Source: Candidatus Omnitrophota bacterium
GTDB lineage: Bacteria > Omnitrophota > Gorgyraeia > Gygaellales > Profunditerraquicolaceae
Assembly (NCBI GenBank): GCA_041651115.1
Contig: JBAZJY010000004.1
Coordinates: 78,114-142,113 of the forward strand
Length of the DNA: 64,000 nt
Reading direction: 5' to 3'
The notes beneath the pieces were generated by a model. That model was not told where the DNA came from, did not search any database, and saw nothing but the letters and a program-made list of their open reading frames with translations. Position numbers and translations under genes: made by a program. The stretch's first letter is position 1; each line of letters starts with the position of its first letter. Positions 11,464 through 42,852 of this stretch are shown piece by piece.

Positions 11464-11562
11464 TTAACACCCAAACCAATCGGCACCTTGCCCTAAAGGA
11501 TGGGCAAGTGTCGCTTGCTGCTGGAATGGTTTGGTGCGCGCTTACTGCGCAGGGAGGAACTT

Positions 11563-12737: not shown

Positions 12738-12814
12738 AGTTATATTCTACACCAAAAAATTTAGATTGCAAATAGAGGAGATTGCAATAGAATAATGCAG
12801 GGAGGTGAAAAGGT

Positions 12815-13693: not shown

Positions 13694-13696
13694 TTT

Positions 13697-14734: not shown

Positions 14735-14788
14735 ATTTTTATGATAACATAGAAGGAGTTTCAATACAAACATATTTGCGGAGGCTAA

Positions 14789-15706: not shown

Positions 15707-15707
15707 A

Positions 15708-16835: not shown

Positions 16836-16851
16836 CATAAGGAGGGGGGAA

Positions 16852-17247: not shown

Positions 17248-17346
17248 AAAAGGGTTACCAAACCGGGTATTTTTTTACTTGTATATGTAGGTGCATAAAA
17301 TTTAGGCACGCAGCAGTGCTTATTGTTTGAGGGAAGCGAACATTGA

Positions 17347-17391
17347 CGTTCAGGAAGGCCTCCTGTTGGAGGCTGGAATGAACGTTTTTTT
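17347..17391 (+). terminator. Rho-independent terminator after doxX
   Basis: CGTTCA-GGAAGGCCTCC-tgtt-GGAGGCTGG-AATGAACG followed by TTTTTTT. Confidence 0.7.
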
Positions 17392-17466
17392 GTTTATAAA
17401 TGCGGCATTCATAGTATAATAGGTAAAATAGCTCAAAAATATCAAACTATCTATTGGGAGGGATTT

Positions 17467-19659
17467 ATGAGTATCCGGCAAAAAGCATTATTTAAGATCA
17501 AAAGCGTTGATTTCGGCAAGGTTGAAGCGCCCAAAAAAGTATCGTCATACTTCGGGGAAAATACTTTTAGCGTTTCCACAATGCGCAAGTATATTTCCGA
17601 GCCTACGTTTGCCGCTTTTAAACGCTGGCTTTCGGAAGGCACTACAATAGACATTAAGCAGGCGAACGAGATCGCAGACGCGATGAAGGAATGGGCGATC
17701 TCCAAAGGCGCGACTTATTATACGCATTGGTTTCAGCCGATGACCGGCCTGACCGCGGAAAAACACGACAGTTTCATTTCCATAGAAGGCCCGGGCAAGG
17801 TGATTGAGAAATTCTCCGGTAATAAACTGATTCAGGGCGAACCAGATGCCTCAAGTTTCCCTTCCGGCGGCATCCGCGCCACCTTTGAAGCGCGCGGTTA
17901 TACTGCCTGGGATCCTTCCAGCCCGGCTTTTATCATTGAAAGCAAACTTGGTAAAACCCTTTGCATACCTACAATATTCATTTCCTATCACGGCGAAGCA
18001 TTGGATAAGAAGCTTCCGCTCTTACGTTCTGATGAAGCCTTGAGTAAGGCGGCTGTGGGCTTGCTTAAGCTTTTCGGGCATAAGGACGTAAAGAAGGTAT
18101 TTTCTACCTGCGGCCCAGAACAGGAATATTTTCTGATTGATAAGAACTATTATAATCTTCGCCAGGACTTGGTGATGACCGGAAGGACATTGGTTGGAGC
18201 GCCTTCGCCAAAGGGACAGCAACTGGAGGATCAGTATTTCGGTTCGATCAAAGAGCGCGTGATTAATTTTATGTTCGAGGTGGCGGAAGAGGCCTATAAA
18301 TTAGGTATCCCGGTAATGACCCGGCACAATGAGGTTGCTCCCCATCAATATGAGTTTGCCCCTGTCTTTGAAGAATCAAATATTGCCGCAGACCACAACC
18401 AGCTCTTGATGGAGTTAATGAAGAAGATCGCCCTGCGTCATAACCTGGTCTGCCTTTTGCATGAAAAGCCGTTTGCCGGCATAAACGGCAGCGGAAAGCA
18501 CCTTAACTGGTCGCTGGCAGACGATAAGGGCAACAATCTTTTGAATCCGGGCGAGACACCGGAGGACAACCTGCAATTTTTGGCAGTTTTAGTCGCGGTC
18601 CTGCGCGCGGTATACAAGCATGCCGATCTTTTGCGCGCCAGTGTTGCCATGGCAGGAAACGAGCATCGCTTGGGAGCAAATGAAGCGCCTCCTGCGATCA
18701 TCAGTGTTTTTCTCGGAGACCAGCTGACGAATATACTAAACATGATTGAAAAGGGCGTGAAAGGTAAAGTTTCCAAACGCGACATCATTGATCTGGGGAT
18801 TGCGCGGCTGCCCAAATTCAATAAGGATACCACTGACCGTAACCGCACTTCGCCGTTTGCCTTTACCGGCAATAAGTTTGAGTTCCGTGCTGTCGGCTCA
18901 TCGCAGAATATTTCCACGCCGATCGCGGTAGTCAATACGATCATTGCCGATTCTCTGGATTATGTGGCCGAGAAGATAAAAAAGGCCGGACAGGGGAAAG
19001 ATTTTAGCACCGCAGTTTTGCAGGTGATCGCGGAGATCGCGAAAGAAACCAAACCGGTGCGCTTTGAAGGCAATAACTACGCCGAAGAATGGGTAAAAGA
19101 GGCGAAAAAAAGAGGGTTGCCCAATGTTGCCTCTACTGCTGAATCGTTGAAAGCGCTGGCTAAGAAAGAGAACATTTCTCTCTTTGAAAAATACAAGGTT
19201 TTCTCGGAGCAGGAACTGATCGCGCGCTACCATATTTGGATACATACGTATAACACCGTGCTTGAGATTGAAGCAAATACCTTGAATGAGATGGTGAATG
19301 CCAGCATCGTGCCTCCGGGCTGCGAATACGAGCAGCTATTGGCGGATGTCCTGGCAAAATTGATCCGGCTGAAAAAAGATGCCGGATTAAAGCTTGATGC
19401 GGCGGCGATCACGGATCAGAAAGAACACTTAAGCGACGTAGTTTCAAAGATCTATTATGTGCGGCGCAATGCCAAGGAAATGGTCAAGCTCCTTGAAAAG
19501 GCAAAAGGGGTAAACCATGAAAAACGCGCCGAGCTTTATTTCACTGAGCTCAAGCCTTTAATGGAGCACATCAGGAAACATGTCGATGCCCTGGAATGCG
19601 TTGTTTCCGATGAACACTGGGATCTTCCGAAATACCGGGAGATGTTGTTCATTAAATAA
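17467..19659 (+). CDS. glnN: Glutamine synthetase type III
   Basis: The 730-aa length is the GSIII size. The GS catalytic core reads HNEVAPHQYEFAPVFE. An RBS, GGGAGGG, lies upstream. Confidence 0.85.
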   Translation: MSIRQKALFKIKSVDFGKVEAPKKVSSYFGENTFSVSTMRKYISEPTFAAFKRWLSEGTTIDIKQANEIADAMKEWAISKGATYYTHWFQPMTGLTAEKHDSFISIEGPGKVIEKFSGNKLIQGEPDASSFPSGGIRATFEARGYTAWDPSSPAFIIESKLGKTLCIPTIFISYHGEALDKKLPLLRSDEALSKAAVGLLKLFGHKDVKKVFSTCGPEQEYFLIDKNYYNLRQDLVMTGRTLVGAPSPKGQQLEDQYFGSIKERVINFMFEVAEEAYKLGIPVMTRHNEVAPHQYEFAPVFEESNIAADHNQLLMELMKKIALRHNLVCLLHEKPFAGINGSGKHLNWSLADDKGNNLLNPGETPEDNLQFLAVLVAVLRAVYKHADLLRASVAMAGNEHRLGANEAPPAIISVFLGDQLTNILNMIEKGVKGKVSKRDIIDLGIARLPKFNKDTTDRNRTSPFAFTGNKFEFRAVGSSQNISTPIAVVNTIIADSLDYVAEKIKKAGQGKDFSTAVLQVIAEIAKETKPVRFEGNNYAEEWVKEAKKRGLPNVASTAESLKALAKKENISLFEKYKVFSEQELIARYHIWIHTYNTVLEIEANTLNEMVNASIVPPGCEYEQLLADVLAKLIRLKKDAGLKLDAAAITDQKEHLSDVVSKIYYVRRNAKEMVKLLEKAKGVNHEKRAELYFTELKPLMEHIRKHVDALECVVSDEHWDLPKYREMLFIK

Positions 19660-19692
19660 GATAATACAACTTTAGGCGATAAGTCAGGGACA

Positions 19693-19726
19693 AAGACGTC
19701 CTCCGGAAGGGGGACGTCTTTTTTTT
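19693..19726 (+). terminator. Rho-independent terminator after glnN
   Basis: AGACGTCC-tccggaag-GGGACGTCT followed by TTTTTTTT. Confidence 0.75.
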
Positions 19727-19771
19727 GCGGTATCCGGTGATTAGTTTTTGGGCAAAGGATGACTGATTATT

Positions 19772-20047
19772 ATGATTAAGCTGGTGATCACAGAAAACGA
19801 AACCGGGATAAAAGATGTGGTTGTTGAGCTGGAAAAATGCTTGTATGATGAAAAAAAAGGGGTATTATATAAATCCATTTTAGAATTAGTGGAAAAACCG
19901 ATCATTGAGCGCGTGCTTGAGCGCACGGAGGGAAATCAGCTTAAGGCAGCCAGGATCTTAGGCATTAATCGCAATACTATGCGGACAAAAATCAAGAAAC
20001 TGGGGATTGACCCTGAAGTATATAAATTCCGTGGACACAATACTTAA
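19772..20047 (+). CDS. Stand-alone Fis-type (HTH_8, NtrC C-terminal-like) DNA-binding mini-protein
   Basis: The C-terminal GNQLKAARILGINRNTMRTKIKKLGI is a classic Fis/NtrC HTH. The protein is 91 aa and sits directly upstream of gltB. Confidence 0.55.
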   Translation: MIKLVITENETGIKDVVVELEKCLYDEKKGVLYKSILELVEKPIIERVLERTEGNQLKAARILGINRNTMRTKIKKLGIDPEVYKFRGHNT

Positions 20048-20086
20048 TTAAGGAAGACGGAATTGATAATTAAGTAGTGTGTCCAC
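20031..20086. repeat. 20-bp inverted repeat (1 mismatch) with a 16-nt spacer, spanning the stop of the Fis-like gene and the 5' end of gltB
   Basis: GTGGACACAATACTTAATTA ... TAATTAAGTAGTGTGTCCAC. The spacer contains AGGAAG. Confidence 0.6.
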
Positions 20087-20097
20087 GAAACAGAAAA

Positions 20098-23000
20098 ATG
20101 AATAATCGTGAAAAGTTAGAAAAATACGGTCTTTATGATCCGAGGTTCGAGCATGATGCCTGCGGCGTAGGTTTTGTGTGTAATATTAAAGGTGCCAGGA
20201 CCAACGAGATCATTCGGCAGGGGTTGGAAGTATTGCGTAAGCTTTCGCATCGCGGGGCAACCGGCGCAGACCCTAAGACCGGAGACGGGGCAGGCATACT
20301 TATACAGATCCCCCATGAATTTTTTGTTAAAGTTGCCGCGGCTGCCAAAATAAAATTACCTCAAAAAGGCGATTATGGGGCAGGGCTGGTGTTCTTGCCG
20401 CAGGATGCTAAAGAACGTAAATTCTGCAAAGATATTTTTTCTGATATTGCCGGCAAGGAGGGTTCAACTATCCTTGGCTGGCGCAGCGTGCCGGTAGACG
20501 ATTCATGCATCGGCATAACCGCAAAACAGACCCAGCCGGTGATTGAGCAGGTTTTTATAGCTAAGGCAGGGGATATAAAAACAGAGATTGACCTTGAAAG
20601 GCGGCTCTATGTTATCAGGAAAAAAACAGAGAATAGCGTCCGCAATTCGCAGATAAAACAAAAATCTTTTTTTTATATCACGAACATATCCTGCCGTACG
20701 CTTTCCTATAAGGGCCTCTTGATGCCTTCGCAGGTGGAAGATTTTTTCCCCGATCTGAAAGACGATTCTCTCAAAAGCAGCCTTTGCCTTGTGCATTCCC
20801 GTTACAGCACCAATACCTTTCCTACATGGGATCTGTCCCAGCCGTTCAGGTATCTTGCCCATAATGGAGAAATAAATACCTTAAGGGGAAATATCAACTG
20901 GATGCTCGCCAGGCAGGGCTTATTAAGAAGTAATGCCTTTGGCAGAGATATCAAAGATATCTTCCCGGTGATCGTTCCCGGCGGAAGCGATTCCGCCTCT
21001 ATCGATAATGTTCTTGAGTTGCTCGTCCTTGCCGGCAGGCCGATAGAGCATGCAATGATGATGCTTATTCCCGCTGCCTGGGAGCGCAACCGGATAATGG
21101 AAGAAAAATTAAGGGACTTTTATAAATATCATTCTTGCCTGATGGAGCCTTGGGATGGGCCGGCGGCAATGGCGTTTACCGACGGCACGCGCATCGGAGC
21201 GCTCCTGGACAGGAACGGCCTGCGGCCTGCGCGTTATATCGTGACTAAGAATGATTTTGTAGTCATGGCATCGGAAGCAGGCGTGCTGGACATACCTGCC
21301 GAAGATGTGCTGTTGTCCGGCAGGCTTGAGCCGGGAAAAATATTTTTTATCGATACCCAGGCCGGATGTTTGATCGGAGATAGAGAAATAAAAGAAAAGA
21401 TGTCCGGTTTAAAACCCTACGGCCAATGGCTTAAAGATAATCTCGTCGAACTGGATAATATCCCTGTGCCTGCAGTTAAAAAAACCGATTCGCAGGACTT
21501 GACCCGGCAGCTTAAGGCGTTTGGCTATAGTCGCGAAGACTTGAGGAATATAATCAAGCCGATGGCCGAGACTGCTCAAGAGCCGGTCGGCTCCATGGGA
21601 AGCGATACCCCCCACGCCGTACTCTCTCAAAAAAGCCAGTTGCTGTATAATTATTTTAAGCAACTATTCGCCCAGGTCACAAACCCGGCGATCGATCCTA
21701 TCAGGGAAGAACTGGTAATGAGCCTGGAGACCTGCCTTGGCCCGGGAAAGAATATTTTTGAAGAGACCCCCGCGCATTGCCATAAGATAATGGTAAGGAA
21801 CCCTATCCTGACAAACGCGGAATTGGCAAAGCTCCGCGATATAAAACAGAACGGCTTTAAAACTAAAACCCTGTCTTTGCTTTTTGACGCATCAAGCGGG
21901 GATAGCTTCATCAAAGCGCTGGATAAAATATGCGCGGAAGCTCAAGCGGCAATCAACGAAGGATATACCTTTATTATCTTAAGCGACAGGGGCCTGAATG
22001 AGCGCTATGCGGCTTTGCCTGCGCTTGCCGCAGTAGGAGCAGTGCACCAGCACCTGATCGGGAATTCGCTGCGCACCCAGATCAGCATTATCGTAGAGAG
22101 CGCTGAACCGCGGGAAGTGCACCATTTTGCGCTGTTGTTTGGTTTTGGGGCGGATTGCATTAATCCTTACCTGGCTTACGAAGCAGTGGAGTATTTAGCC
22201 AGGGAAGGCGAGATTGAAGATCGGCTAAAAGAAAAAGCCCGGGCTAATTATATAAAGGCGGTAAATAAAGGTATCCAGAAGATACTTTCTAAAATGGGGA
22301 TCTCTACTTTGCAAAGTTACCGCGCGGCGCAGATATTTGAGGCGTTGGGTTTAAGCAAGGAAGTAATCGACCGTTGTTTTAGCGGCACGGTTTCCAGGAT
22401 CAGCGGCGCAGACTTTAGCGTGATCGCCAAAGAAGCGCTGCTCAGGCATAGCGAGGCATATCCGGCAACTGAACTTAACCTGCCTCTGGCCGCAGGAGGG
22501 GTTTACCAGTGGAAAAAAGACGGAGAATTCCATCTTTGGAACCCGGATACCATCGCTGCTTTGCAGGATAGCGCATGGAAAAATGATTATAAGAAATATA
22601 AAGAATTTGCCGGTTTGATCAATGATCAGTCTGCTGATCCCACGACGTTGCGCAGCCTGCTGAAATTCAAGCAAGCGCATCCGGTGCCTATTGAAGAAGT
22701 TGAGCCGGTTGAAGAGATCGTGAAACGGTTTGTCACCGGGGCAATGAGCTTTGGCTCGATCAGCAAAGAAGCGCATGAGACGATCGCTATTGCCATGAAC
22801 CGCCTGAAAGGGAAATCAAATACCGGCGAAGGAGGCGAAGACCCGGCAAGGTTCGTAAGCCTGCCTAACGGCGATTCAGCGCGCAGCGCAATCAAACAGG
22901 TTGCTTCCGGAAGATTCGGCGTAACTGCCAACTATCTTGTAAATGCCGATGAAATACAGATCAAGATCGCGCAAGGGGCAAAGCCCGGCGAAGGCGGGCA

Positions 23001-24627
23001 GCTGCCCGGGCACAAGGTAAGCGTTACCATTGCCAAGACGCGCTATACTACGCCGGGAGTAACCCTGATCTCACCGCCGCCGCATCACGATATTTATTCC
23101 ATTGAAGACCTGGCGCAATTGATATTTGACTTAAAGAATGTAAATCCGGCCGCGCGCATCAGCGTAAAACTTGTGTCGGAGATCGGCGTAGGCACAGTTG
23201 CCGCAGGAGTTGCTAAAGGCCATGCAGATATGATCTTGATCTCCGGATTTGACGGAGGCACAGGCGCGTCGCCTTTAAGTTCGATCAAGCATGCCGGCTT
23301 GCCCTGGGAACTCGGGCTTTCTGAAACACATCAGACACTGGTATTGAATGACCTGCGCAGCAGGGTGCGGCTGCAGGCAGACGGCCAGATGCGTACCGGA
23401 AGAGACATTGCCATTGCCTGCTTATTGGGAGCCGAGGAATTCGGTTTTTGTACTGCCGTCTTGATCACGCTTGGCTGCGTGATGCTGCGGCACTGCAACC
23501 TCAATAATTGTTCTGTCGGCGTTGCCACTCAAGATGAGATCCTGCGCCGGAGATTCAAGGGCAGGCCCGAATATATCATTAATTACCTGCGTTTTGTAGC
23601 AGAAGAGCTGCGTGAGATCATGAGCTCTTTGGGCATAAGAAAAATAGATGAAATGGTCGGCAGGACCGATCTTCTGGATATAAATACCGCTATCCTGCCG
23701 TGGAAGGCAAAAGGCATAGATTTTTCCAGGATGACTTACAAGCCGGAAGTGCCGGAAAATATCGGCACCCATTGCAGCGTCAAACAGGACCACGGGATTG
23801 ACAAGATCCTTGACCGGCAGTTGATAAAATCGGCAACAGCGGCATTGCAAAAATCTGAACCCGTGAAGATCGAGCTGGCAATCAATAATGTCAACCGCAC
23901 TTGCGGGGCAATGTTAAGCGGCGAAGTTTGTAAGAGCTATGGCGAAGAAGGCCTTCCCCAGGATACTATCTTTTGTAAATTTAAAGGCATAGCCGGACAG
24001 AGCTTTGGCGCTTTTCTTGCCAAGGGTATTACTTTTGAGCTTGAAGGCATGGCTAACGATTATGTAGGCAAGGGTATTTCCGGAGGTAAAATCATCGTTT
24101 ATCCCGACAAGAAGTCAGGCTGTGACCCGCGGGAAAATATCATTATCGGTAACACTACTTTTTACGGCGCGATCAACGGCGAAGCATATATCCGGGGGTC
24201 GGCCGGAGAAAGGTTCTGCATCAGGAATTCCGGGCTTTATGCGGTAGTTGAAGGCGTGGGTGATCATGGCTGTGAATATATGACCGGCGGAAGAGTAGTG
24301 ATATTGGGAGAAACAGGAAGGAATTTCGGAGCCGGTATGTCCGGCGGCATTGCCTACGTTTACAACCCGCAGGGAGATTTTAAAGATAAGTGTAACCTGG
24401 AAATGGTCCAATTAGAAGCGCTGTCCGCTAGCGACGAAGTAACAATCCGCGATCTGCTCCACAGCCACCATAAATATACGCACAGTGAAGCGGCAAAAAG
24501 AGTCCTTGATGATTTTAAGGTTGAATTAAAAAATTTCGTCAAGGTTATGCCGCTTGAATATAAACGCATTATGGAAACAGCTGAACTGGAACAAAAGCTT
24601 GGCCTTGAAGAAGATTCGGAAGGATAA
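20098..24627 (+). CDS. gltB: Glutamate synthase large subunit
   Basis: The Ntn amidotransferase N-terminus, with CGVGFV after Met, is present. The FMN domain includes GAMSFGSISKEAHETIAIAMNRLKGKSNTGEGGE. A C-terminal GXXG-rich domain is present. The protein is about 1509 aa. Confidence 0.9.
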   Translation: MNNREKLEKYGLYDPRFEHDACGVGFVCNIKGARTNEIIRQGLEVLRKLSHRGATGADPKTGDGAGILIQIPHEFFVKVAAAAKIKLPQKGDYGAGLVFLPQDAKERKFCKDIFSDIAGKEGSTILGWRSVPVDDSCIGITAKQTQPVIEQVFIAKAGDIKTEIDLERRLYVIRKKTENSVRNSQIKQKSFFYITNISCRTLSYKGLLMPSQVEDFFPDLKDDSLKSSLCLVHSRYSTNTFPTWDLSQPFRYLAHNGEINTLRGNINWMLARQGLLRSNAFGRDIKDIFPVIVPGGSDSASIDNVLELLVLAGRPIEHAMMMLIPAAWERNRIMEEKLRDFYKYHSCLMEPWDGPAAMAFTDGTRIGALLDRNGLRPARYIVTKNDFVVMASEAGVLDIPAEDVLLSGRLEPGKIFFIDTQAGCLIGDREIKEKMSGLKPYGQWLKDNLVELDNIPVPAVKKTDSQDLTRQLKAFGYSREDLRNIIKPMAETAQEPVGSMGSDTPHAVLSQKSQLLYNYFKQLFAQVTNPAIDPIREELVMSLETCLGPGKNIFEETPAHCHKIMVRNPILTNAELAKLRDIKQNGFKTKTLSLLFDASSGDSFIKALDKICAEAQAAINEGYTFIILSDRGLNERYAALPALAAVGAVHQHLIGNSLRTQISIIVESAEPREVHHFALLFGFGADCINPYLAYEAVEYLAREGEIEDRLKEKARANYIKAVNKGIQKILSKMGISTLQSYRAAQIFEALGLSKEVIDRCFSGTVSRISGADFSVIAKEALLRHSEAYPATELNLPLAAGGVYQWKKDGEFHLWNPDTIAALQDSAWKNDYKKYKEFAGLINDQSADPTTLRSLLKFKQAHPVPIEEVEPVEEIVKRFVTGAMSFGSISKEAHETIAIAMNRLKGKSNTGEGGEDPARFVSLPNGDSARSAIKQVASGRFGVTANYLVNADEIQIKIAQGAKPGEGGQLPGHKVSVTIAKTRYTTPGVTLISPPPHHDIYSIEDLAQLIFDLKNVNPAARISVKLVSEIGVGTVAAGVAKGHADMILISGFDGGTGASPLSSIKHAGLPWELGLSETHQTLVLNDLRSRVRLQADGQMRTGRDIAIACLLGAEEFGFCTAVLITLGCVMLRHCNLNNCSVGVATQDEILRRRFKGRPEYIINYLRFVAEELREIMSSLGIRKIDEMVGRTDLLDINTAILPWKAKGIDFSRMTYKPEVPENIGTHCSVKQDHGIDKILDRQLIKSATAALQKSEPVKIELAINNVNRTCGAMLSGEVCKSYGEEGLPQDTIFCKFKGIAGQSFGAFLAKGITFELEGMANDYVGKGISGGKIIVYPDKKSGCDPRENIIIGNTTFYGAINGEAYIRGSAGERFCIRNSGLYAVVEGVGDHGCEYMTGGRVVILGETGRNFGAGMSGGIAYVYNPQGDFKDKCNLEMVQLEALSASDEVTIRDLLHSHHKYTHSEAAKRVLDDFKVELKNFVKVMPLEYKRIMETAELEQKLGLEEDSEG

Positions 24628-24629
24628 AT

Positions 24630-26075
24630 ATGGGCGATATAAAAGGGTTCTTGAAAACTAAACGCCATAAATCGCAATACCGGCCGGTATGCGAGCGGTT
24701 AAAGGATTACCGCGAAGTAACGGTCTTGCGTAACGACGATTTGTCGCAGGAGCAGGCATCGCGCTGTATGGATTGCGGCACGCCTTTTTGCCACTGGGCT
24801 TGTCCGATAGGCAATTATATCCCCGAATGGAATGACGCGATGTTCAAGGGCCATTGGCAAAAGGCAATAGAATTATTGACCGCTTGCAATAATCTTCCGG
24901 AAATTACCGGCAGGCTCTGCCCGGCATTATGCGAATACGCCTGTGTCCTGGGGATAAATGACGATCCGGTAACAGTAAGGGAAAATGAATTGGCAATAAT
25001 TGAGCATGCTTTTAAGGCAGGGATAATCAAGCCAATGCCGCCTGCAAAGCGCACTGGTAAGCGCGTAGCGGTTATCGGCTCCGGGCCGGCAGGCATTTCC
25101 TGCGCCGACCAGTTAAATAAAGCAGGGCATAAAGTAACGGTTTTTGAAAAAGACGATAAGCCCGGCGGGATCATGCGTTACGGCATACCGGATTTTAAGC
25201 TGGAAAAATGGATCATTGACCGCAGAGCCGCTATATTAGAGGCAGAAGGAGTTGAGTTCCGCGTAAATACAGATGCGGGAGTAGATTATCCGGCGAAGAA
25301 ACTCTTATCTGAATTTGATGCGGTTTGTCTTACCGGCGGAAGCCGCCAGCCCAGAGATTTAAAGATTGAAGGCAGAGACCTGAAAGGCATTTATTTTGCT
25401 ATGGATTACCTCACGCAATCAAATAGAAGAGTAGCAGGGCAAAGTTTCCCGGCGGATAAATTGATCGATGCCGCAGGAAAGAAAGTTCTAGTGATCGGCG
25501 GCGGCGACACCGGAGCCGATTGCGTGGGCACGGCAAACCGGCAAGGCGCGTCTTGCGTGGTGCAGATTGAAGTCATGCCTAAACCTTCTGAATGCCGCAC
25601 AGAAGATTTCCCGTGGCCAAAGTATCCGCTGCTCTTAAAGAATTCCACCAGCCATGAAGAAGGCGCAGATCGTAAGTGGGCGATATTGACGAAGAAATTC
25701 ATCGGCGAGAATGGTAAACTCAAGAAAATCGTTTGCGTGGAGGCTAATTTTTCTACAAAAGACGCAAAGGGTTGCCCGGTAATCAAAGAAGTCCCCGGAA
25801 GCGAGTTTGAGATTGAAATAGATACGGCGATACTTGCCATCGGGTTCCTGCATCCTGAGCACAGCGGCTTGCTTAAAGAATTAGCAGTGGAGCTTGACGC
25901 AAAAGGCAATGTAAAGACCGATTCCTCTCAAATGACTTCCGTTAAGGGCGTGTTTTCCGCCGGCGATATGCGTCGCGGACAGTCGCTGATTGTCTGGGCG
26001 ATCTCCGAAGGCCGCAAAGCAGCACACTTCATCGACGCCTTTCTCATGGGCCAAAGTAACCTGCCAGCGCTTTAA
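24630..26075 (+). CDS. gltD: Glutamate synthase small subunit (NADPH-dependent, GltD)
   Basis: N-terminal Cys clusters are present. The FAD and NADPH Rossmann motifs are VAVIGSGPAG and VLVIGGGDTGADC. The protein is 481 aa and lies directly after gltB. Confidence 0.9.
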   Translation: MGDIKGFLKTKRHKSQYRPVCERLKDYREVTVLRNDDLSQEQASRCMDCGTPFCHWACPIGNYIPEWNDAMFKGHWQKAIELLTACNNLPEITGRLCPALCEYACVLGINDDPVTVRENELAIIEHAFKAGIIKPMPPAKRTGKRVAVIGSGPAGISCADQLNKAGHKVTVFEKDDKPGGIMRYGIPDFKLEKWIIDRRAAILEAEGVEFRVNTDAGVDYPAKKLLSEFDAVCLTGGSRQPRDLKIEGRDLKGIYFAMDYLTQSNRRVAGQSFPADKLIDAAGKKVLVIGGGDTGADCVGTANRQGASCVVQIEVMPKPSECRTEDFPWPKYPLLLKNSTSHEEGADRKWAILTKKFIGENGKLKKIVCVEANFSTKDAKGCPVIKEVPGSEFEIEIDTAILAIGFLHPEHSGLLKELAVELDAKGNVKTDSSQMTSVKGVFSAGDMRRGQSLIVWAISEGRKAAHFIDAFLMGQSNLPAL

Positions 26076-26458
26076 TCGTATTCCAGTTAACTGAACCTGC
26101 CGGTTCTTTTCGCTCAGTGTGCCGTTTGCCCTAAGATAAAGGAGGGCACGCCAATGATCTTTCGCATTTCGGCGGCGGTGAACTCGCCCTTTTTGCTCTA
26201 GCAAAAAATGGCTCAGACACTCCACCGCCGTCCCGATATTACCGCCTATTCAGGCGGCATCGGGATTCCCGAAAGTGCTCAAGCTCCATTGGCTAAACGG
26301 CCCAAACTTCGCTCAAAGAACCGCCAGATTCATTTTACAAGCGAATCGTTTATAATCTTGCGGCTGACTTGGCTTGCTTTGAGCAGGGCGTGAGGAGGCT
26401 TGAGCGGGCGATGAAACTTTACCTTGATGATAATCTGGGGCTAGGGTAGAATACACCT

Positions 26459-27760
26459 ATGTGCTACGCCATACCGGGAAAAGTGGAAGCGATCAGCGCC
26501 AATGTCGTGACCGTGGACTATTTCGGCGAAAAGAAGAAGGCCTACAATGAATTCATTGAAATTTCCGTCGGAGACTACATCTACGCGCAAGGAGGCTATG
26601 TGATCACCAGGGTTCCGCCGCGTGAAGCGGCAGAGAGCCTTGCGGCGTGGAAAGAATTGTTCTTTAAATTAAAAGAAGTGGACCTGAAAAGATCGCGCTT
26701 TATCTCTTCCGGAAAGACCCGCGGCAGTAAAGTTGTCCCGATCTTTAATAAAGTAAATAAAGGCATTGCCCTAAAGCATGATGAATTGCGCTATCTTTTA
26801 GGGCTTGAAGATAAACAGGAGTTAGCGACGTTCTTTAAGGCGGCGAATTTCCTGCGCCATAAGTACCACGATAATTCCTGCTGCGTGCACGGTATTATTG
26901 AAATTTCCAATAACTGCCGCAGAAATTGCCTTTATTGCGGTATATCGGCCCTGAATAAGAATATCCCGCGCTACCGGATGGATAAAGATGAAATATTGGC
27001 CTGTGTTGCGGAGGCAGTAGAGAAATACGGGTTTAAGGCATTAGTGCTGCAAAGCGCGGAAGATGACGCGTATTCAGTTGAAGAGTTGGCGGATATCATA
27101 AAGACGATAAAACAGCGGCATGCGGTTTTGATATTCGTCAGTTTCGGTGAGATCGGCCTCGATGGTTTAAAAAAATTGTACGCAGCCGGCAGCCGCGGCC
27201 TCTTGATGCGTTTTGAAACTTCCAACCCTGAAATTTACGCGCAACTGCATCCCGGGTATGATCTGCAAACGCGCATAGAACATTTAAAATCCGCCTATGA
27301 ACTGGGTTATCTGATCATTACCGGTTCCTTGATCGGGCTGCCGGGCCAGTCTCCGGACGATATTATAAATGATATGGCCTTGAGCCGGCAATTACATGCG
27401 GAGATGCTCAGTTTCGGGCCGTTTATCCCGCATCCTGATACAGTATTAGCAGCAAGCCCGCTGCCGAAGGAAGAACACATTTTAAAAGTCATCAGCCTTG
27501 CGCGGTTTACCGCGGAAGAGAACGCAAAGATCCTCGTTACCACCGGATTTGAGACCTTAAGTGATAAAGCGCGCGAAAAAGGCCTTGCCTGCGGAGCGAA
27601 TTCAGTGATGCTTAACGTTACTCCTTTAAAATACCGGCCGCTTTATGCGATCTATCCTAATCGTGCGCATGAGCAGGAGCCGATAAGCCTGCAGATTGAG
27701 CAGACGATCGCGCTTCTCAAATCCATGGGCCGCGCGCCCACTGATTTGGATAAGGGATAA
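26459..27760 (+). CDS. Fusion protein: N-terminal HypC/HupF-like domain plus a HydE/BioB-family radical SAM domain
   Basis: The N-terminus MCYAIPGKVEAISANVVTVDYFGEKKKAYNEF.. has the HypC MC-x-IP signature. The radical SAM motif is IEISNNCRRNCLYCGISALNKNIPRYRM, which is the HydE-like CX3CX2C plus RYR pattern. The protein is 433 aa. Confidence 0.7.
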   Translation: MCYAIPGKVEAISANVVTVDYFGEKKKAYNEFIEISVGDYIYAQGGYVITRVPPREAAESLAAWKELFFKLKEVDLKRSRFISSGKTRGSKVVPIFNKVNKGIALKHDELRYLLGLEDKQELATFFKAANFLRHKYHDNSCCVHGIIEISNNCRRNCLYCGISALNKNIPRYRMDKDEILACVAEAVEKYGFKALVLQSAEDDAYSVEELADIIKTIKQRHAVLIFVSFGEIGLDGLKKLYAAGSRGLLMRFETSNPEIYAQLHPGYDLQTRIEHLKSAYELGYLIITGSLIGLPGQSPDDIINDMALSRQLHAEMLSFGPFIPHPDTVLAASPLPKEEHILKVISLARFTAEENAKILVTTGFETLSDKAREKGLACGANSVMLNVTPLKYRPLYAIYPNRAHEQEPISLQIEQTIALLKSMGRAPTDLDKG

Positions 27761-27762: not shown

Positions 27763-27880
27763 GGTTAAGGTTATGGTTAGGAAGCCGGTATGGTTTAGAG
27801 GTTAAGGTTAGGCCATTAATATACTTAACCCTAACCCAACTACCATACTGGCTTCTTAACCTCAACCTGATAACTTAACC
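27763..27880. repeat. Long imperfect palindrome / hairpin element rich in GGTTAAGG and CCTAACC motifs (about 118 nt)
   Basis: A 13-bp core, GAAGCCGGTATGG / CCATACTGGCTTC, is flanked by GGTTAAGGTTA direct repeats at 27763 and 27800 and by their complements on the right arm. Confidence 0.55.
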
Positions 27881-31978: not shown

Positions 31979-32620
31979 ATGGGAGAAATAATCATCAGGC
32001 CGTACGCAGGCAAGGACCGGGACGCAGTCAGGCAGATCGCTTTTGACACGGCGTTTCTTGGCGAGCCGGGATCGGCATTTTTTGACAGCCGGGAAATGCT
32101 TGCGGATTTCCTGACCGATTATTTTATTGATTATGAGCCGCAGTCTTGTTTTGTCGCTGAATCAGGCGGAGAAGTTATCGGGTATCTCCTTGGGGCAAAA
32201 GATTCTGCCTGCCCGCGGCCGGGGCTGGCCGGAAAACTATTACTTAAAGCCGTAAAACAAAATATAATTTTTAACAGAAAGAACGCAGCGTTTATCTTCA
32301 GGTGCCTCACGAGTTTTTTCCGCGGTGAATTCAAGGCGCCGGATTTTTCCCGTGAATATCCGGCAACCTTACATATTAATATCAAGGACGGATTCCGCAG
32401 CCAGGGGATCGGCGCAAAGCTTATCGGAGTATACCTGGATTACTTGAAGAAAGAAAAGATCAAGGGCGTACATTTTGCCACGCTTTCCGAACGGGCGGCA
32501 AACTTCTATGAAAGGCTGGGGTTTACCTTGCTTCATAAGGCTAAGCGGTCGTATTTTAATAGTATTTTACATAAAGATGTTTTCTGTTATATTTATGGGA
32601 AAAGATATGAAGATAATTGA
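31979..32620 (+). CDS. GNAT-family N-acetyltransferase
   Basis: The acetyl-CoA-binding motif is QGIGAKLI...YERLGF. The protein is 213 aa. Confidence 0.7.
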   Translation: MGEIIIRPYAGKDRDAVRQIAFDTAFLGEPGSAFFDSREMLADFLTDYFIDYEPQSCFVAESGGEVIGYLLGAKDSACPRPGLAGKLLLKAVKQNIIFNRKNAAFIFRCLTSFFRGEFKAPDFSREYPATLHINIKDGFRSQGIGAKLIGVYLDYLKKEKIKGVHFATLSERAANFYERLGFTLLHKAKRSYFNSILHKDVFCYIYGKRYEDN

Positions 32621-33437
32621 TAAGGCGGTTTTAGGAGAAGCGCAAGGCATAAAAATCACCAAGCTGGTGGTTTTGGCGCCGGATATTAGCCGGAAAGCCC
32701 AGGCAGGCCAGTTTATCGCGCTTATGGCCAGTGAAAAAGGAGAGCGCATCCCGCTCACTATTGTGGATGCTGATAAAGATAACGGGGCAATCACTTTGAT
32801 CCTCCAGGAAGCAGGGTTAACTACTAAATTATTAGGCAAGATGAACGTCGGCGATTCTTTATACGCGCTGGCCGGGCCCCTGGGGCATCCTACGCAGATC
32901 ATTAATTACGGAAGAGTGGTCCTGGTTGGCGGTGGAGTGGGGATCGCAGAAATTTATCCGATTGCAAAGGCATTAAAATCCGCCGGTAACCAAGTCACTA
33001 CAGTATTAGGCGCCAGGACTAAAGAATTATTGATCTTGGAAAAAGAATTGCGGGAAGTTTCGGATGAATTTCTTGTCACTACCGATGACGGTTCTTATGC
33101 AAGAAAAGGGTTTACTACCGATATATTGACCGAAATGCTGGAAAAAGGCAAATACGGCCTGGTTTATGCGGTTGGCCCGATCCCGATGATGCAAAGAGTT
33201 GCCGCGCTAACCAAGGGCTTTGGCGTAAAGACTATTGTTTCACTTAATCCGCTGATGGTTGATGCAACCGGTATGTGCGGCTGCTGCCGGGTAACCGTAA
33301 GCGGAGAGGTAAAGTTTAGCTGCGTAGACGGGCCGGAATTTGATGCCGCAGCAGTGGATTGGGATGAGCTGGTGAAAAGAAACAGCGCCTATCTTGATAA
33401 AGAAAAACACATTTGCCGGCTTAATAAATTAATTTAA
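32607..33437 (+). CDS. NfnA/SudB-like FAD/NAD(P)-binding iron-sulfur subunit (PyrK-like electron-transfer subunit)
   Basis: The ferredoxin-reductase fold begins MKIIDKAVLGEAQGIKITKLVVLAPDI. The C-terminal Cys cluster reads CGCCRV...C. The start at 32607 is preferred, with a 14-nt overlap with the GNAT gene. Confidence 0.75.
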   Translation: MKIIDKAVLGEAQGIKITKLVVLAPDISRKAQAGQFIALMASEKGERIPLTIVDADKDNGAITLILQEAGLTTKLLGKMNVGDSLYALAGPLGHPTQIINYGRVVLVGGGVGIAEIYPIAKALKSAGNQVTTVLGARTKELLILEKELREVSDEFLVTTDDGSYARKGFTTDILTEMLEKGKYGLVYAVGPIPMMQRVAALTKGFGVKTIVSLNPLMVDATGMCGCCRVTVSGEVKFSCVDGPEFDAAAVDWDELVKRNSAYLDKEKHICRLNKLI

Positions 33438-33444
33438 TTTAAAA

Positions 33445-34869
33445 ATGAAAAAAGAACCGGTTGATCCTAAAGAATTGGCAGCTGCGCAAAGAACAAGCGG
33501 CTTTGAAGAAGTGGTTGCCGTGTACGGCGAGGAACAAGCATTGGAGGAGGCCAGCCGCTGCCTGCAGTGTAAAAACCCTACCTGTATTTCCGGCTGTCCC
33601 GTAGGCATAGACATAAAGAAATTCATCGGCGAGGTTGCCAAAAAAGATTATGCCGCCGCATATTTTACGATCCGGGAAAAAAATAATTTTCCCGCGATCT
33701 GCGGTAGAGTCTGCCCGGCAGAATACCAGTGCCGCCGCAGCTGCGTATTGACAAAGAAAGGCTCGCCGTTTGCCTCTAAGGAAGCAATAAACATCCATTT
33801 CCTGGAAAGGTTTGTCGGTGATTATGGGATGAAAAATAATCTGGCGGCCCCGGTTTCCAATGACAGCGCTTTTACCGGATTAAAAGTGGCAATAGTCGGT
33901 TCCGGTCCGGCAGGATTGTGCTGCGCCGGAGAATTGGCAAGGTGCGGGATCAAGGTAACGGTTTTTGAAAGCCTGCATAATTCCGGAGGGGTTTTGCGTT
34001 ACGGCATACCTCCGTTCAGGCTGCCAAGGGATATCCTTGATTTTGAGATAAATTATTTAAAGAAATTGGGAGTGGAGATCCGCCCTAATCTGATTATCGG
34101 CAGGACCAAGACTTTAGATGAATTATTTTCCGAAGGATACAAGGCGATATTCCTGGGCCTGGGAGCGGGTATTCCGTCTTTTATGGGGATCAAGGGCGAA
34201 AGCTTATGCAATGTCTATTCTGCCAATGAATTCTTGACCCGCGTGAACCTGATGTCCGCTTATAAATTCCCGGAGTTCCAGACGCCGGTAAGCATCGGTA
34301 AGCACGTGATTGTCATCGGCGGAGGCAATACTGCGATGGATTCCGCCAGAGTAGCGCTTAGGCTGCAAAAAATGAACGGGATTATGCCGGATACCACGGT
34401 CCTTTACCGGCGTACGGAAGTTGAAATGCCGGCAAGAAGGCTGGAGATCGAGCACGCTAAAGAAGAAGGGATAAAATTCAAATTTCTGGTAAAACCCGAG
34501 GAATTCATCGGCGATGAAAACGGCCTGCTGAAAAAGATCCGCTGCCTTGAGTGCAAATTAGGCGAACCGGACAGCTCCGGCAGGAAAAGACCCATACCCA
34601 TTGAGGGCAGCGATTTTCAGCTGGATTGCGACCTGGCGGTGATTGCCGTGGGCTTAAGGGCAAACCAGATCCTGACCAAGGCTACGTCGGGGTTAAAGGT
34701 AGATAAATACGCCGACGTGATCGTAGACCCAGAGACCATGGAAACATCGATCAGGGGAGTTTTTGCCGGAGGCGATATCGTCGGTGGAGAAGGTACGGTC
34801 ATTGAGGCAATGGGCATGGCCAAGAAAGCTGCAAAGGCGATAATCAAATATTTGCGGTCACTGTTGTAA
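33445..34869 (+). CDS. NfnB/SudA-like glutamate-synthase-beta-type NADPH-dependent oxidoreductase (GltD family)
   Basis: The N-terminal Cys clusters are CLQCKNPTCISGCP and CGRVCPAEYQC. The Rossmann motifs are VAIVGSGPAG and VIVIGGGNTAMD. Confidence 0.8.
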   Translation: MKKEPVDPKELAAAQRTSGFEEVVAVYGEEQALEEASRCLQCKNPTCISGCPVGIDIKKFIGEVAKKDYAAAYFTIREKNNFPAICGRVCPAEYQCRRSCVLTKKGSPFASKEAINIHFLERFVGDYGMKNNLAAPVSNDSAFTGLKVAIVGSGPAGLCCAGELARCGIKVTVFESLHNSGGVLRYGIPPFRLPRDILDFEINYLKKLGVEIRPNLIIGRTKTLDELFSEGYKAIFLGLGAGIPSFMGIKGESLCNVYSANEFLTRVNLMSAYKFPEFQTPVSIGKHVIVIGGGNTAMDSARVALRLQKMNGIMPDTTVLYRRTEVEMPARRLEIEHAKEEGIKFKFLVKPEEFIGDENGLLKKIRCLECKLGEPDSSGRKRPIPIEGSDFQLDCDLAVIAVGLRANQILTKATSGLKVDKYADVIVDPETMETSIRGVFAGGDIVGGEGTVIEAMGMAKKAAKAIIKYLRSLL

Positions 34870-34977
34870 AGCGCCGCCCGGAAAGATGTAAATTTATCTT
34901 GACAGAGCCGTCATTTAATTATATTTTATTAAACAGGCTTCAAAATACTTAAACAACATAAGTTAGTCAAGGACAAA

Positions 34978-35010
34978 GGCGTCCCAAACTAGGCGGGATG
35001 CCTTTTTTTA
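34978..35010 (+). terminator. Rho-independent terminator after the nfnAB-like pair
   Basis: AGGCGTCCC-aaactagg-CGGGATGCCT followed by TTTTTTTA. Confidence 0.7.
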
Positions 35011-35085
35011 TTTGGGTAAGTGTGATTAAAAAACGGGCAAAAGCTGCCTAATCTTTAACAAATACCCAATTCAATAGGTTGAATT

Positions 35086-35113
35086 GGTATCCCACTTTCT
35101 GTGGGAAGGGAGG
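35086..35113. promoter_or_regulatory. Second copy of the conserved dyad element, GGTATCCCACTtTCTGTGGGAAgGGAGG, overlapping the RBS
   Basis: Identical to 7419-7445 apart from 2 nt. An extra 9-bp inverted repeat, CCAATTCAA-taggt-TTGAATTGG, lies just upstream at 35065-35087. Confidence 0.6.
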
Positions 35114-35119
35114 AATGCT

Positions 35120-36712
35120 ATGAATTTGCGTACACCCGGCGGCAACGACGCAACGCGTACGTTCAACCGCTCGAAAAACGTAGTTCCTTGTTCAGGCTTG
35201 TGTTCCAGGTGTCTGGAGTCTTGCCGGGGTAACTGCGAAGTTTTTAAATCTTCATTCCGCGGCAGGGAAGTGATCTATCCCGGGCCGTTCGGCGAAATGA
35301 CAGCCGGAGGCGATAAGGATTATCCGGTTGATTATTCACATTTGAATATCCAGGGATATGCCCAGGGCGCTAAAGGCCTGCCAAAGGGCACAGAGGCGGG
35401 CCCGGATTCTGCGACTTTCCCATCGGTAAACACCGAAACAGAATATGGCTGGGATAAGAAGGTCAAAATGAAAGCCCCGATTTTTACCGGCGCGCTCGGC
35501 TCAACCGAGATCGCCCGTAAGAATTGGGAGCATTTTGCCATAGGCGCTGCCATTTCAGGCGTGACCATTGTCTGCGGGGAGAATGTATGCGGCATTGATC
35601 CTAAGCTTGAGTTAGACAGCAAGGGAAAGATCACCAATGCCCCGGATATGGATCGCCGTATCGAAGTATATAAGCGTTTCCATGACGGTTACGGCGAGAT
35701 CCTCGTGCAAATGAACGTTGAGGATACGCGCCTGGGGGTTGCCGAATACGTGCGTAAAAAACATAAACTGGAAACCATTGAGTTAAAATGGGGCCAGGGC
35801 GCAAAATGTATCGGCGGTGAGATCAAGGTAAAAAGCCTGGAAAGGGCGATTGAGCTGAAAAAACGCGGCTATATCGTTACTCCTGATCCGACTGTGCATG
35901 CTAATAAAGAAGCGTTTAAAGCAGGCGCGATCAAAGAATTTGAACGCCATTCCCGCTTAGGGTTTGTCTCCGAAGAAGGCTTTATGAAGGAGATCAAGCG
36001 CTTAAGGGATCTTGGTTTTAAACGGATCACCTTGAAGACCGGCGCATATTCCATGGTGGAACTTGCCCAGGCCTTGAAGTTTTCCTCGATGGCCAAGATT
36101 GACCTTTTAACCATTGACGGCGCTCCCGGCGGCACAGGGATGAGTCCATGGAGAATGATGCAGGAATGGGGTACGCCTACGTTTTATTTGCAGGCGCTGA
36201 CCTATGAGTTTTGCGAAAAATTAGCCAAGAAAAAAATGCGCATCCCGGATATTGCCATTGCCGGCGGGTTCTCATTGGAAGATCATATCTTCAAGGTGAT
36301 CGCCATGGGCGCTCCTTATGTCAAAGCAGTGTGTATGGGCCGCGCGTTGATGATCCCGGGCTTTGTCGGCAAGAACATCGGAGAATGGATCAAGTCAAAT
36401 ACTCTGCCTCCGACAGTTTCCGAATTCGGGGTCAAGCCGGAAGAGATCTTTGTTTGCTACGAAGAGCTGGCCGAAAAATACGGGGAAGACATGAAAGATA
36501 TCCCCTTGGGCGCGGTGGGTATCTATACCTTCTCGCAGCGGATCAAAGTCGGCTTGCAGCAATTGATGGCGGGTTCGCGTAATTTTAACCTGTCCACGAT
36601 TTCCCGTAAGGACCTGATGAGCCTGACAAAGGAAGCGGAAGAGGTTTCCGGCATTCCTTATGTGATGGATGCTTATCGCAAAGAAGCGGAGAAGATCTTA
36701 GGCGGTAAGTAA
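35120..36712 (+). CDS. Stand-alone glutamate-synthase domain-2-like FMN-dependent oxidoreductase with an N-terminal Cys-rich motif
   Basis: CSGLCSRCLESCRGNC is a 4-Cys cluster. The GltS FMN-domain pattern is TGALGSTEIARKNWEHFAIGAAISGVTIVCGENV, paralleling GAMSFGSIS...TGEGG of gltB. The protein is about 530 aa. Confidence 0.7.
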   Translation: MNLRTPGGNDATRTFNRSKNVVPCSGLCSRCLESCRGNCEVFKSSFRGREVIYPGPFGEMTAGGDKDYPVDYSHLNIQGYAQGAKGLPKGTEAGPDSATFPSVNTETEYGWDKKVKMKAPIFTGALGSTEIARKNWEHFAIGAAISGVTIVCGENVCGIDPKLELDSKGKITNAPDMDRRIEVYKRFHDGYGEILVQMNVEDTRLGVAEYVRKKHKLETIELKWGQGAKCIGGEIKVKSLERAIELKKRGYIVTPDPTVHANKEAFKAGAIKEFERHSRLGFVSEEGFMKEIKRLRDLGFKRITLKTGAYSMVELAQALKFSSMAKIDLLTIDGAPGGTGMSPWRMMQEWGTPTFYLQALTYEFCEKLAKKKMRIPDIAIAGGFSLEDHIFKVIAMGAPYVKAVCMGRALMIPGFVGKNIGEWIKSNTLPPTVSEFGVKPEEIFVCYEELAEKYGEDMKDIPLGAVGIYTFSQRIKVGLQQLMAGSRNFNLSTISRKDLMSLTKEAEEVSGIPYVMDAYRKEAEKILGGK

Positions 36713-36740: not shown

Positions 36741-36796
36741 AAGTAGGGACAGACACTACTTTTTGGCAAAAAAGTAGTGTCTGTCCCTACTTTTTA
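36741..36796. terminator. Perfect 23-bp palindrome with a 4-nt loop, flanked by A- and T-runs (bidirectional terminator)
   Basis: AAGTAGGGACAGACACTACTTTTT-ggca-AAAAAGTAGTGTCTGTCCCTACTTTTT. Confidence 0.8.
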
Positions 36797-36812
36797 TGTT
36801 ATATTAACAGCC

Positions 36813-40295: not shown

Positions 40296-40340
40296 CCTTA
40301 ATGTATCCTTTCCGTATAGCCTTTGCATCAATCGCATAAC

Positions 40341-42845: not shown

Positions 42846-42852
42846 TTTAAGT

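Follow-up and report, generated by a model that had tools for sequence, protein, structure and literature searches.

What is the function of a protein that joins an iron carrier of [NiFe]-hydrogenase maturation to a radical enzyme of [FeFe]-hydrogenase maturation, and why does its gene stand in a part of the genome where no hydrogenase is visible? The question is raised by one gene in a 64,000-nucleotide stretch of DNA from a Candidatus Omnitrophota bacterium (contig JBAZJY010000004.1, positions 78,114 to 142,113; hereafter the window, by which positions below are numbered). The gene (26459–27760 including the stop codon, forward strand) is a single uninterrupted open reading frame (ORF) with an ATG start, and encodes a 433-residue protein that begins with MCYAIPGKVEAISANVV and carries the radical S-adenosylmethionine (SAM) motif IEISNNCRRNCLYCGISALNKNIPRYRM (C153/C157/C160). 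HypC, HybG and HupF are the Fe(CN)2CO chaperones of [NiFe] hydrogenases; the fusion links this iron carrier with HydE, the processor of the Fe(CO)2(CN) synthon in the [FeFe] pathway.

The window gene truly joins a HypC-type chaperone domain to a HydE-type radical SAM barrel, because both domains were verified by hidden Markov models and by relatives of solved structure, and because the frame is continuous: in the ORF listing no stop codon separates the two domains and no internal start is needed. The HypC/HupF-like domain (residues 1–79, 26459–26695) matched Pfam HupF_HypC (PF01455) at residues 1–64, with 49.7 bits for the whole protein and 53.6 bits for residues 1–90 against a gathering score of 28.5 bits, and scored 41.2–45.5 bits on the narrower HypC model TIGR00074, just below its cutoff of 48. 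The HypC structures 2z1c, 3vyr and 3d3r match residues 1–67, and the domain aligns end to end in sequence with the first two. For the HydE-type barrel (residues 97–427, 26747–27739), Pfam Radical_SAM spans residues 147–306, and the best NCBIfam match of the protein is HydE (TIGR03956, residues 97–407) at 241 bits, a narrow miss of the 254.6 cutoff. In phmmer searches, chains of Thermotoga maritima HydE (TmHydE) matched residues 108–427 at ~1e-62. Identities as PylB (127.9 bits, cutoff 348.2), BioB (93.8, cutoff 225) and HmdB (61.7, cutoff 320.9) were rejected for the radical SAM part, their scores being far under the cutoffs and structural similarity lower than to HydE; the HydG model TIGR03955 gave 54.8 bits against a cutoff of 312, so that the protein is not a HydG.

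An AlphaFold2 (AF2) model built from 92 homologues, with a predicted local distance difference test (pLDDT) score of 92.1 and a predicted template modelling (pTM) score of 0.91, runs from an oligonucleotide/oligosaccharide-binding (OB) fold through a long helix (residues 54–79) and a short uncertain linker into a (beta-alpha)8 barrel. The strands of the HypC-like domain occupy residues 7–13, 16–21, 24–29, 40–44 and 47–52 ahead of that helix, with pLDDT 78–92; in the inter-domain linker (residues 80–96, 26696–26746) the mean pLDDT is 65 over residues 81–90, versus 86–98 elsewhere. Foldseek searches with the model placed TmHydE structures at the top (target-normalised template modelling (TM) scores 0.91–0.96, 34–36% identity), and the barrel superposes on 7o1p with a root-mean-square deviation of 1.5 Å. 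A first, sequence-only reading of the locus had proposed a HypC-like N-terminus fused to a radical SAM enzyme resembling HydE, HmdB and PylB. The fusion and the HydE resemblance are borne out, the latter with a score that stays under the model cutoff; the resemblance is not a generic one, PylB and HmdB being distant, and the domain belongs, as set out below, to a distinct HydE clade. The opposite case that the same reading had raised, a separate small hypC-like gene followed by a downstream start, does not fit the continuous frame or the ORFs of the family, which begin at M-C. The gene is also under strong purifying selection, with dN/dS of 0.08 relative to its closest relative, L001, at a dS near saturation.

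The fusion is a conserved, ancient, multi-phylum family and not an isolated oddity, and its description as an unusual one-off therefore falls away. A database protein (P0001, 'radical SAM protein') from a Candidatus Omnitrophota metagenome-assembled genome (MAG) is identical to the window protein, and the best 120 database matches all carry both Pfam domains, at 58–81% identity and lengths of ~433 residues, under source names that disagree with one another (radical SAM protein, HypC chaperone, HydE, biotin synthase). Surveying other genomes for the same fusion, as had been suggested, yielded 105 species-representative genomes that encode a relative, of which 80 (loci L001–L080, each matching query residues 1–430) were kept for locus analysis. 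Taken as deposited with the MAGs, the taxon labels of the relatives include Omnitrophota, Margulisiibacteriota/Saganbacteria, Elusimicrobia, Fibrobacterota, Spirochaetota, Atribacterota (including a complete chromosome), Riflebacteria/Ozemobacteraceae, Auribacterota, Syntrophales, Nitrospirae and others. Of the representatives in a protein library clustered at 50% identity, ~20 are fusions over their full length; below them the scores continue into ordinary unfused HydEs of ~350 residues. The start site is equally consistent: 72 cluster members show a HypC-like N-terminus; in 66 the ORF starts exactly at M-C, and the other six were called as longer or truncated ORFs that have the motif (or a cut) close to their start. 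In the literature searched, this family, a HydE paralogue joined to a HypC chaperone, is not described: no account of a HypC–HydE fusion, or of HydG or HydE linked to [NiFe] operons, was found, and searches for HydG/HydE together with hyp genes or with Omnitrophota returned nothing relevant. A paper on Margulisbacteria nowhere mentions maturation, and supplements of an Ace Lake study contain no maturase names.

On the HypC side, the domain shares with HypC/HybG/HupF proteins (E. coli; T. kodakarensis 2Z1C, 3VYR) the Met-Cys2 start, the OB-fold and the C-terminal helix. Cys2 (codon 26462–26464), the metal-carrying N-terminal cysteine of HypC-type chaperones, is invariant in the 92 homologues, as are Y3, P6, G7, G38, D39, Y40, Q44, G45, G46, W64, F68, F69 and D75; in HypC this cysteine is essential (PMC9002611). 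Unlike HypC, which is a free protein of ~80 residues, the domain is covalently attached to a 350-residue enzyme, and it differs at one further position. In HMMER alignments, Gln44 (codon 26588–26590; aligned to 2z1c, 3vyr, 3d3r and 2ot2) stands opposite the conserved His of the HypC motif VIVH(T/V)GFA (E. coli His51, T. kodakarensis His44). In HypC, His51 lies at the HypC–HypD interface, and the H51A substitution weakens HypD binding (PMC9002611). By these alignments, the HypD-contact His is replaced by an invariant Gln throughout the fused family. The helix that leads into the linker is also conserved (W64, F68, F69, L71 and D75), and, since the AF2 model is confident (pLDDT 92, pTM 0.91), the two observations together imply a predicted fixed arrangement of the HypC-like domain and the barrel.

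On the HydE side, residue roles established for TmHydE (PMC11826987, PMC10114646) were mapped onto 71 fused proteins. The equivalents of C63/C67/C70 (the CX3CX2C cluster motif C153/C157/C160, 26915–26938), L157, R159, M224, T268 and M291 are conserved in 71/71, that of V105 in 70/71 and that of T269 in 68/71; in the window protein the pocket is formed by V196, L249, R251, T361/T362, M316 (codon 27404–27406) and M384 (codon 27608–27610), the last two corresponding to M224 and M291. These methionines form a thioether relay that binds the Fe(CO)2(CN) intermediate in TmHydE, and the S3 site of HydE, a conserved set of one Thr and two Arg, contacts the CN ligands and is needed for hydrogenase maturation (PMC11826987, PMC10114646). 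The fused proteins share a different S3 site: R54 is His in all 71 (His144 in the window protein, codon 26888–26890), T134 is Phe, Cys or Leu (F226, codon 27134–27136) and R155 is Gly or Ala (G247, codon 27197–27199), and the three substitutions together mark the clade. Among 141 diverse representatives, 102 unfused HydEs have R-T-R at these positions and all 17 with a HypC start have H-F/Y-G/A; several seemingly unfused H-F-G sequences proved to be truncated fusions. The auxiliary-cluster cysteines are absent from the fused family, and K309 is mostly R. An unrooted neighbour-joining tree of the barrel (141 terminals) separates a canonical clan of 113 from an H-F-G-like clan of 28; a midpoint-rooted test of monophyly of the H-F-G group was uninformative because the root fell inside that group. 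By sequence comparison, the radical SAM domain thus forms a distinct HydE clade in which the substrate pocket and Met relay are kept and the product site is remodelled. Compared directly with TmHydE (3CIW, 7O1O, 7O1T), the family has the same full barrel, cluster motif, V105/L157/R159/T268/T269 pocket and M224/M291 pair, and is often adjacent or fused to HydG; unlike TmHydE, it carries an N-terminal HypC domain, has H/F/G in place of R54/T134/R155, lacks the auxiliary-cluster cysteines, forms its own clan in the tree, and has [NiFe] genes, not [FeFe] genes or HydF, as its neighbours.

This genomic association emerged when ORFs were called in the 80 loci and clustered, covering ~10 kb on each side of the fusion. 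The typical order, on one strand, is a [NiFe]-hydrogenase operon, a HycI-type endopeptidase gene, a small HypA-like gene and the fusion. Two kinds of hydrogenase occur in it, group 3b-type enzymes of four subunits and membrane-bound group 4 enzymes (Mbh/Mrp or Ech-like), and the arrangement extends over more than ten phylum labels. A large subunit, HycI or HypA-like gene lies within 5 kb on the same strand in 39 of the 52 loci with at least 3 kb available upstream, and HydG within 5 kb downstream in 20 of the 54 loci with at least 3 kb available on that side; where a locus had neither, hydrogenase genes were mostly on the other side of the fusion. The median gap to the fusion is 7.5 bp from the HypA-like gene (n = 32) and 3.5 bp from HycI (n = 12), and the median gap from the fusion to HydG is –0.5 bp (n = 16), spacings that are operon-like and indicate that HydG is probably often translationally coupled to the fusion. 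Independently of these calls, precomputed Pfam annotations on contigs of 599 kb and 492 kb gave the order NiFeSe_Hases ... HycI – HypA – fusion – Rex – Radical_SAM+BATS.

The identities of these neighbours were established with NCBIfam models: the large subunit matched sulfhydrogenase alpha (271 bits), HycI matched TIGR00072 (104 bits; cutoff 47), the downstream radical SAM protein is HydG (454–497 bits; cutoff 312), and the small subunit, HypB and Rex were also identified. An 82-residue neighbour matched the N-terminal half of HypA at 25.8 bits, under the cutoff of 28.9; of 47 HypA-like neighbours, 40 have MHE as their first residues, and roughly one in three is a full-length protein that includes a CxxC site. 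All 57 [NiFe] large subunits carry the C-terminal DPCxxCxx[H/R] motif, 54 of them also RxCGxC, and 43 have a C-terminal extension of 7–35 residues. The HydG partner has a radical SAM fold related to that of the fusion (TM ~0.65); the fusion differs from it in having no C-terminal auxiliary-cluster domain. Three natural HypC–HydE–HydG triple fusions put both partners in the same polypeptide: a single 921-residue protein in L013 (10001–12766), on a complete Omnitrophota chromosome, and the representatives P0122 (906 residues) and P0131 (881 residues). A strict CX2CX22C pattern matched 18 of 28 HydG neighbours. The idea of a special HydG type beside the fusion was abandoned, as the CX5C spacing of the L037-type HydG also occurs in the L038 HydG that stands beside canonical hydF and hydE.

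Other maturation genes are scarce around the fusion. Crude regular expressions for motifs of HypD (GPGCPVC, GFETT), HypE (C-terminal PRIC) and HypF (double zinc finger) found none in the 80 loci within the ~10 kb per side, and the HydF motif occurred in one locus only, L038, next to a canonical HydE, and in none of the other 79. That Omnitrophota locus holds a canonical set of hydF (partial), hydG and hydE (14–3424) and, a few kilobases away, a 3b-type [NiFe] operon that ends in the fusion; its unfused HydE scores 359.6 bits on TIGR03956, and one genome can thus encode HydEs of both types. An [FeFe] hydrogenase, HydA, is encoded in 5 of the 80 loci. In L041 (8790–10601) and four other loci (ORF cluster 33) the [FeFe] hydrogenase is of the group A6 type, with TSCSPGW for the usual TSCCPxW, that is, a Ser where the proton-relay Cys stands. 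A further recurrent neighbour (ORF cluster 34; L020, L021, L034, L051 and L075) is a His-rich membrane protein of ~237 residues with HxHxH runs and no significant Pfam match, which may be a nickel transporter; its gene directly follows the fusion in L020 and L021 (before HydG in L020) and precedes it in L051 and L075.

Because the fusion usually stands last, at the 3' end, in a [NiFe] operon, often with HydG behind it, a link to a known cofactor is the economical reading. The proposal in the sequence-only reading of a new metallocofactor or ligand-synthesis module holds in so far as metallocofactor or ligand synthesis is plausible; the [NiFe] operon context makes a known cofactor likelier than a new one. 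Our preferred reading, to which we give a probability of roughly 0.4, is that the fusion is a bifunctional hydrogenase-maturation protein, which together with HydG makes an Fe-CO/CN fragment and passes it to its own HypC domain for use in [NiFe] enzymes. A more specific version is rather unlikely as a whole and is put forward tentatively: in it, HydG and the H-F-G type of HypC–HydE would constitute a radical SAM pathway that builds a tyrosine-derived Fe-CO/CN unit and uses the tethered HypC domain to deliver it to [NiFe] hydrogenases of groups 3b and 4 in uncultivated anaerobes, supplementing or replacing HypD, HypE and HypF.

Tyrosine cleavage and the building of an [Fe(Cys)(CO)2(CN)] synthon are established for HydG. 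As a first step, the HydG encoded as the usual downstream neighbour, for which the loci supply a bona fide gene and nothing more, would perform this chemistry. The HydE-like domain would then bind the synthon and remove its cysteine through attack of a 5'-deoxyadenosyl radical on sulfur, after which the Fe-CO/CN fragment would move along the Met316/Met384 relay; conservation of these residues is observed, and the chemistry is inferred. In canonical HydE, the S3 site would be where the product is held or dimerised for HydF. With His144/Phe226/Gly247 in place of that anion site, the fragment would presumably be neither dimerised nor exported to HydF, and the cysteine at the N-terminus of the tethered HypC domain could capture it instead. 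Once Met1 is removed, Cys2 would offer a thiolate next to a free amine and would thereby be the protein-bound counterpart of the cysteinate ligand in the HydG product. Finally, the HypC domain may insert the iron unit into the [NiFe] large-subunit precursor encoded upstream, as the gene order suggests, with the HypA-like protein and HypB adding nickel and HycI trimming the C-terminus. Overall, strict anaerobes would obtain the CO (and CN) of their [NiFe] enzymes from tyrosine by a radical SAM route, which would supplement or bypass HypD, HypE and HypF. The proposal fits reports that Omnitrophota MAGs have a single hydrogenase type each, often [NiFe] only (PMC8542988), and that 3b enzymes typify the same uncultivated phyla (PMC9324843). 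The nearest functional counterpart is HypX, a CO synthase for [NiFe] hydrogenases that decarbonylates formyl-THF/formyl-CoA as an aerobic adaptation (PMC12134894). If the model is right, both would be accessory enzymes that give the CO ligand to HypC-held iron; unlike HypX, which is unrelated in fold and chemistry, the fusion would be an oxygen-sensitive radical SAM enzyme of strict anaerobes.

Several observations weigh against this proposal. The HydG synthon is Fe(CO)2(CN), versus the Fe(CO)(CN)2 that [NiFe] enzymes need, and ligand exchange therefore has to be assumed. The substrate pocket is that of a true HydE, and ordinary HydE function is chemically possible. HydG follows within 5 kb in only the 20 of 54 loci noted above, and the fusion in the window has neither a hydrogenase nor HydG within ~82 kb. 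In five loci a group A [FeFe] hydrogenase with Rex stands just downstream of the fusion, and in L085 Rex, NuoE and NuoF genes lie near it; both arrangements fit an [FeFe] role. Nearly all data on the family, moreover, come from MAGs.

The chief alternative, unlikely but a serious contender, is that the two domains have independent functions: the HypC domain would serve the upstream [NiFe] enzyme with HypD, HypE and HypF encoded elsewhere, the barrel would act as HydE for the [FeFe] H-cluster with HydG and HydF, and the fusion would have arisen from hypC and hydE genes that were neighbours in a hydrogenase gene island. The order of protease, HypA-like and HypC-like genes at the 3' end of the [NiFe] operons mirrors the E. 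coli hyb operon, which runs hybD-hybF-hybG, and the fusion holds the same place as hybG, after a protease and a HypA homologue. The location of hybG in that operon is documented (PMC9002611). HydE is also the best family match of the barrel and the name that NCBI gives to some homologues, the barrel retains the complex-B pocket and both methionines, and in at least five loci an [FeFe] hydrogenase, Rex and HydG lie downstream with no canonical HydE seen in those loci. Such a division of labour is harder to reconcile with the replacement, across the clade, of all three S3 residues important for [FeFe] maturation, with a genome that keeps canonical hydFGE besides the fusion (L038), and with the 79 other loci in which HydF was not found. 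A chaperone that shuttles between HypD and the large subunit would not be expected in an ancient fusion of many phyla with a conserved linker and a confidently predicted fixed geometry, and the HypD-contact His is lost. HydG, finally, is translationally coupled to the fusion behind [NiFe] operons, mostly without HydA within 10 kb.

The reverse assignment, which we regard as quite improbable, gives the whole protein to [FeFe] maturation, with the HypC-like domain as a carrier of the HydE product that partly or wholly replaces the HydF scaffold. HydF is indeed missing both from loci with the fusion and HydG and from loci with [FeFe] HydA, and the changed part of the barrel is the HydF-facing S3/exit site. 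Precedents for carrier-like attachments exist as well, since some canonical HydEs bear a different carrier-like domain with a Cys, PF11823. Representatives P0188 and P0194 are canonical HydEs with an N-terminal PF11823 'putative Se/S carrier' domain (52–68 bits), and the canonical HydE P0264 has an N-terminal extension similar to theirs; P0143 (803 residues) is a canonical R-T-R HydE fused to HydG with no HypC domain. Chlamydomonas HydEF is a further maturase fusion. Like the window protein, HydEF, P0143, P0188 and P0194 join HydE to a pathway partner or a small Cys-bearing carrier domain, and the attachment of such a domain ahead of HydE seems to recur; unlike the window protein, they combine canonical R-T-R HydE with partners from the [FeFe] pathway, whereas the partner domain in the window protein comes from the [NiFe] pathway. 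The tightest and dominant association of the family is, likewise, with [NiFe] structural and maturation genes and not with HydA. Addition of the dithiomethylamine bridge is considered to require HydF (PMC12752695), which could be encoded elsewhere in these genomes.

The window itself departs from the family pattern. The absence of hydrogenase genes noted in the sequence-only reading is confirmed: tblastn searches of the 64 kb with [NiFe] and [FeFe] subunits, HycI, HypB, HydG and canonical HydE matched only the fusion itself, and no hydrogenase genes were found in a further 8 kb upstream and 10 kb downstream from overlapping assemblies, for ~82 kb covered in total. HydG, HydF and an [FeFe] hydrogenase are all missing from the window. 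This lack of hydrogenase neighbours is the exception, because most other loci pair the fusion with a [NiFe] operon. Upstream of the fusion lie amtB, P-II, type III glutamine synthetase, gltB and gltD genes; downstream are genes for a DUF3047 protein, a small uncharacterised protein, a cyclophilin, ribonucleotide reductase, PEBP and GNAT proteins, and then SudBA/NfnAB-like genes and a Glu_synthase-domain protein (32475–36712, forward strand, assigned with Pfam), ~5 kb beyond the fusion. The same three families (ORF clusters 4, 10 and 30) directly follow fusion–HydG in L007, L012, L016, L017, L018, L026 and L028, and in the window the unrelated genes from DUF3047 to GNAT stand in between. Because the SudBA-like and Glu_synthase genes retain this residual synteny with other Omnitrophota clusters, the window looks like a rearranged remnant of an Omnitrophota hydrogenase–fusion–HydG cluster, in which the fusion would have been parted from its hydrogenase operon and kept under strong purifying selection. 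A role outside hydrogenases in the window lineage, concerned with another metallocofactor or ligand and perhaps tied to the neighbouring nitrogen-assimilation or Fe-S flavoenzyme genes, is hardly probable: the ~82 kb free of hydrogenase and HydG genes, the gltD–fusion order shared with L001 and the selection on an 'orphaned' gene speak for it, but the protein keeps every family-invariant residue and is 58–81% identical to homologues inside hydrogenase operons, the SudBA-like genes preserve residual synteny with such operons, and a hydrogenase may lie elsewhere, the region seen being part of a 162-kb contig in an incomplete MAG.

The gene does sit after gltB and gltD, as first described, across a 383-nucleotide spacer, but the notion of a 380-nucleotide leader could not be upheld: in L001, the closest relative, where coding regions share 77% DNA identity and the gltD–fusion order is the same, the spacer is ~128 bp and has no DNA similarity to that of the window. 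Scanned with Rfam at gathering thresholds, the whole window gave no match, and known riboswitches or leader RNAs are therefore absent upstream of the fusion. Consensus scans of the forward strand found two terminator-like hairpins with T-runs after gltD (26093–26198) and a promoter-like TTGATG-17 nt-TAGAAT (26424–26452) that ends 6 nucleotides before the ATG and constitutes weak evidence, with four such sites in the region versus 2.6 expected from shuffles. Neither kind of site was more frequent than in shuffled sequence, and both count as leads; the promoter-like site abutting the start codon suggests a possible short-leader or leaderless transcript. Right after the fusion stop codon, on the same strand, lies a long and very stable hairpin (27768–27868; minimum free energy –60.6 kcal/mol, z = –8.7 versus shuffles). 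Made up of GGTTAAGGTTA-like units and without a T-run, it occurs nowhere else in the window and may be either a terminator or a small repeat element.

Farther out, the nitrogen-assimilation block (10069–26075 and locus L081) contains two amtB genes with P-II genes, type III glutamine synthetase, gltB (1516 residues) and gltD, with a GAF-ANTAR regulator and NAD synthase further upstream. Beyond the Glu_synthase-domain gene come a two-component system and a glycosylation cluster, the latter with STT3-type oligosaccharyltransferase and glycosyltransferase genes (40323–49220); scattered around that cluster are three genes for B12-binding radical SAM proteins and one for a radical SAM/DUF3463 protein (36777–38354, 49217–50689, 54675–56132 and 57221–58357). 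Past the 3' end of the window, in L082 (15957–18953), a giant ORF that runs off the locus (product >3,900 residues) follows two secretin genes and tetratricopeptide repeat (TPR) protein genes.

A 2025 review names the anaerobic origin of the [NiFe] CO ligand as the most pressing open question, and does not consider radical SAM enzymes (PMC12134894). If the preferred reading is true, the HydG/fusion pathway would be such an anaerobic source of the CO ligand in these uncultivated lineages. The fusion in its operon context supplies a concrete, clonable candidate system of three parts in which tyrosine-derived CO and CN might feed [NiFe] hydrogenases. The H-F-G clade is, in addition, a natural variant for dissecting the role of the S3 site of HydE. 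Even if the domains act independently, a single distinct protein family stands behind many database entries annotated, without consistency, as 'HydE', 'biotin synthase' or 'HypC chaperone'. It is common among Omnitrophota and further uncultivated anaerobes, for which hydrogen metabolism has been deduced from genomes alone.

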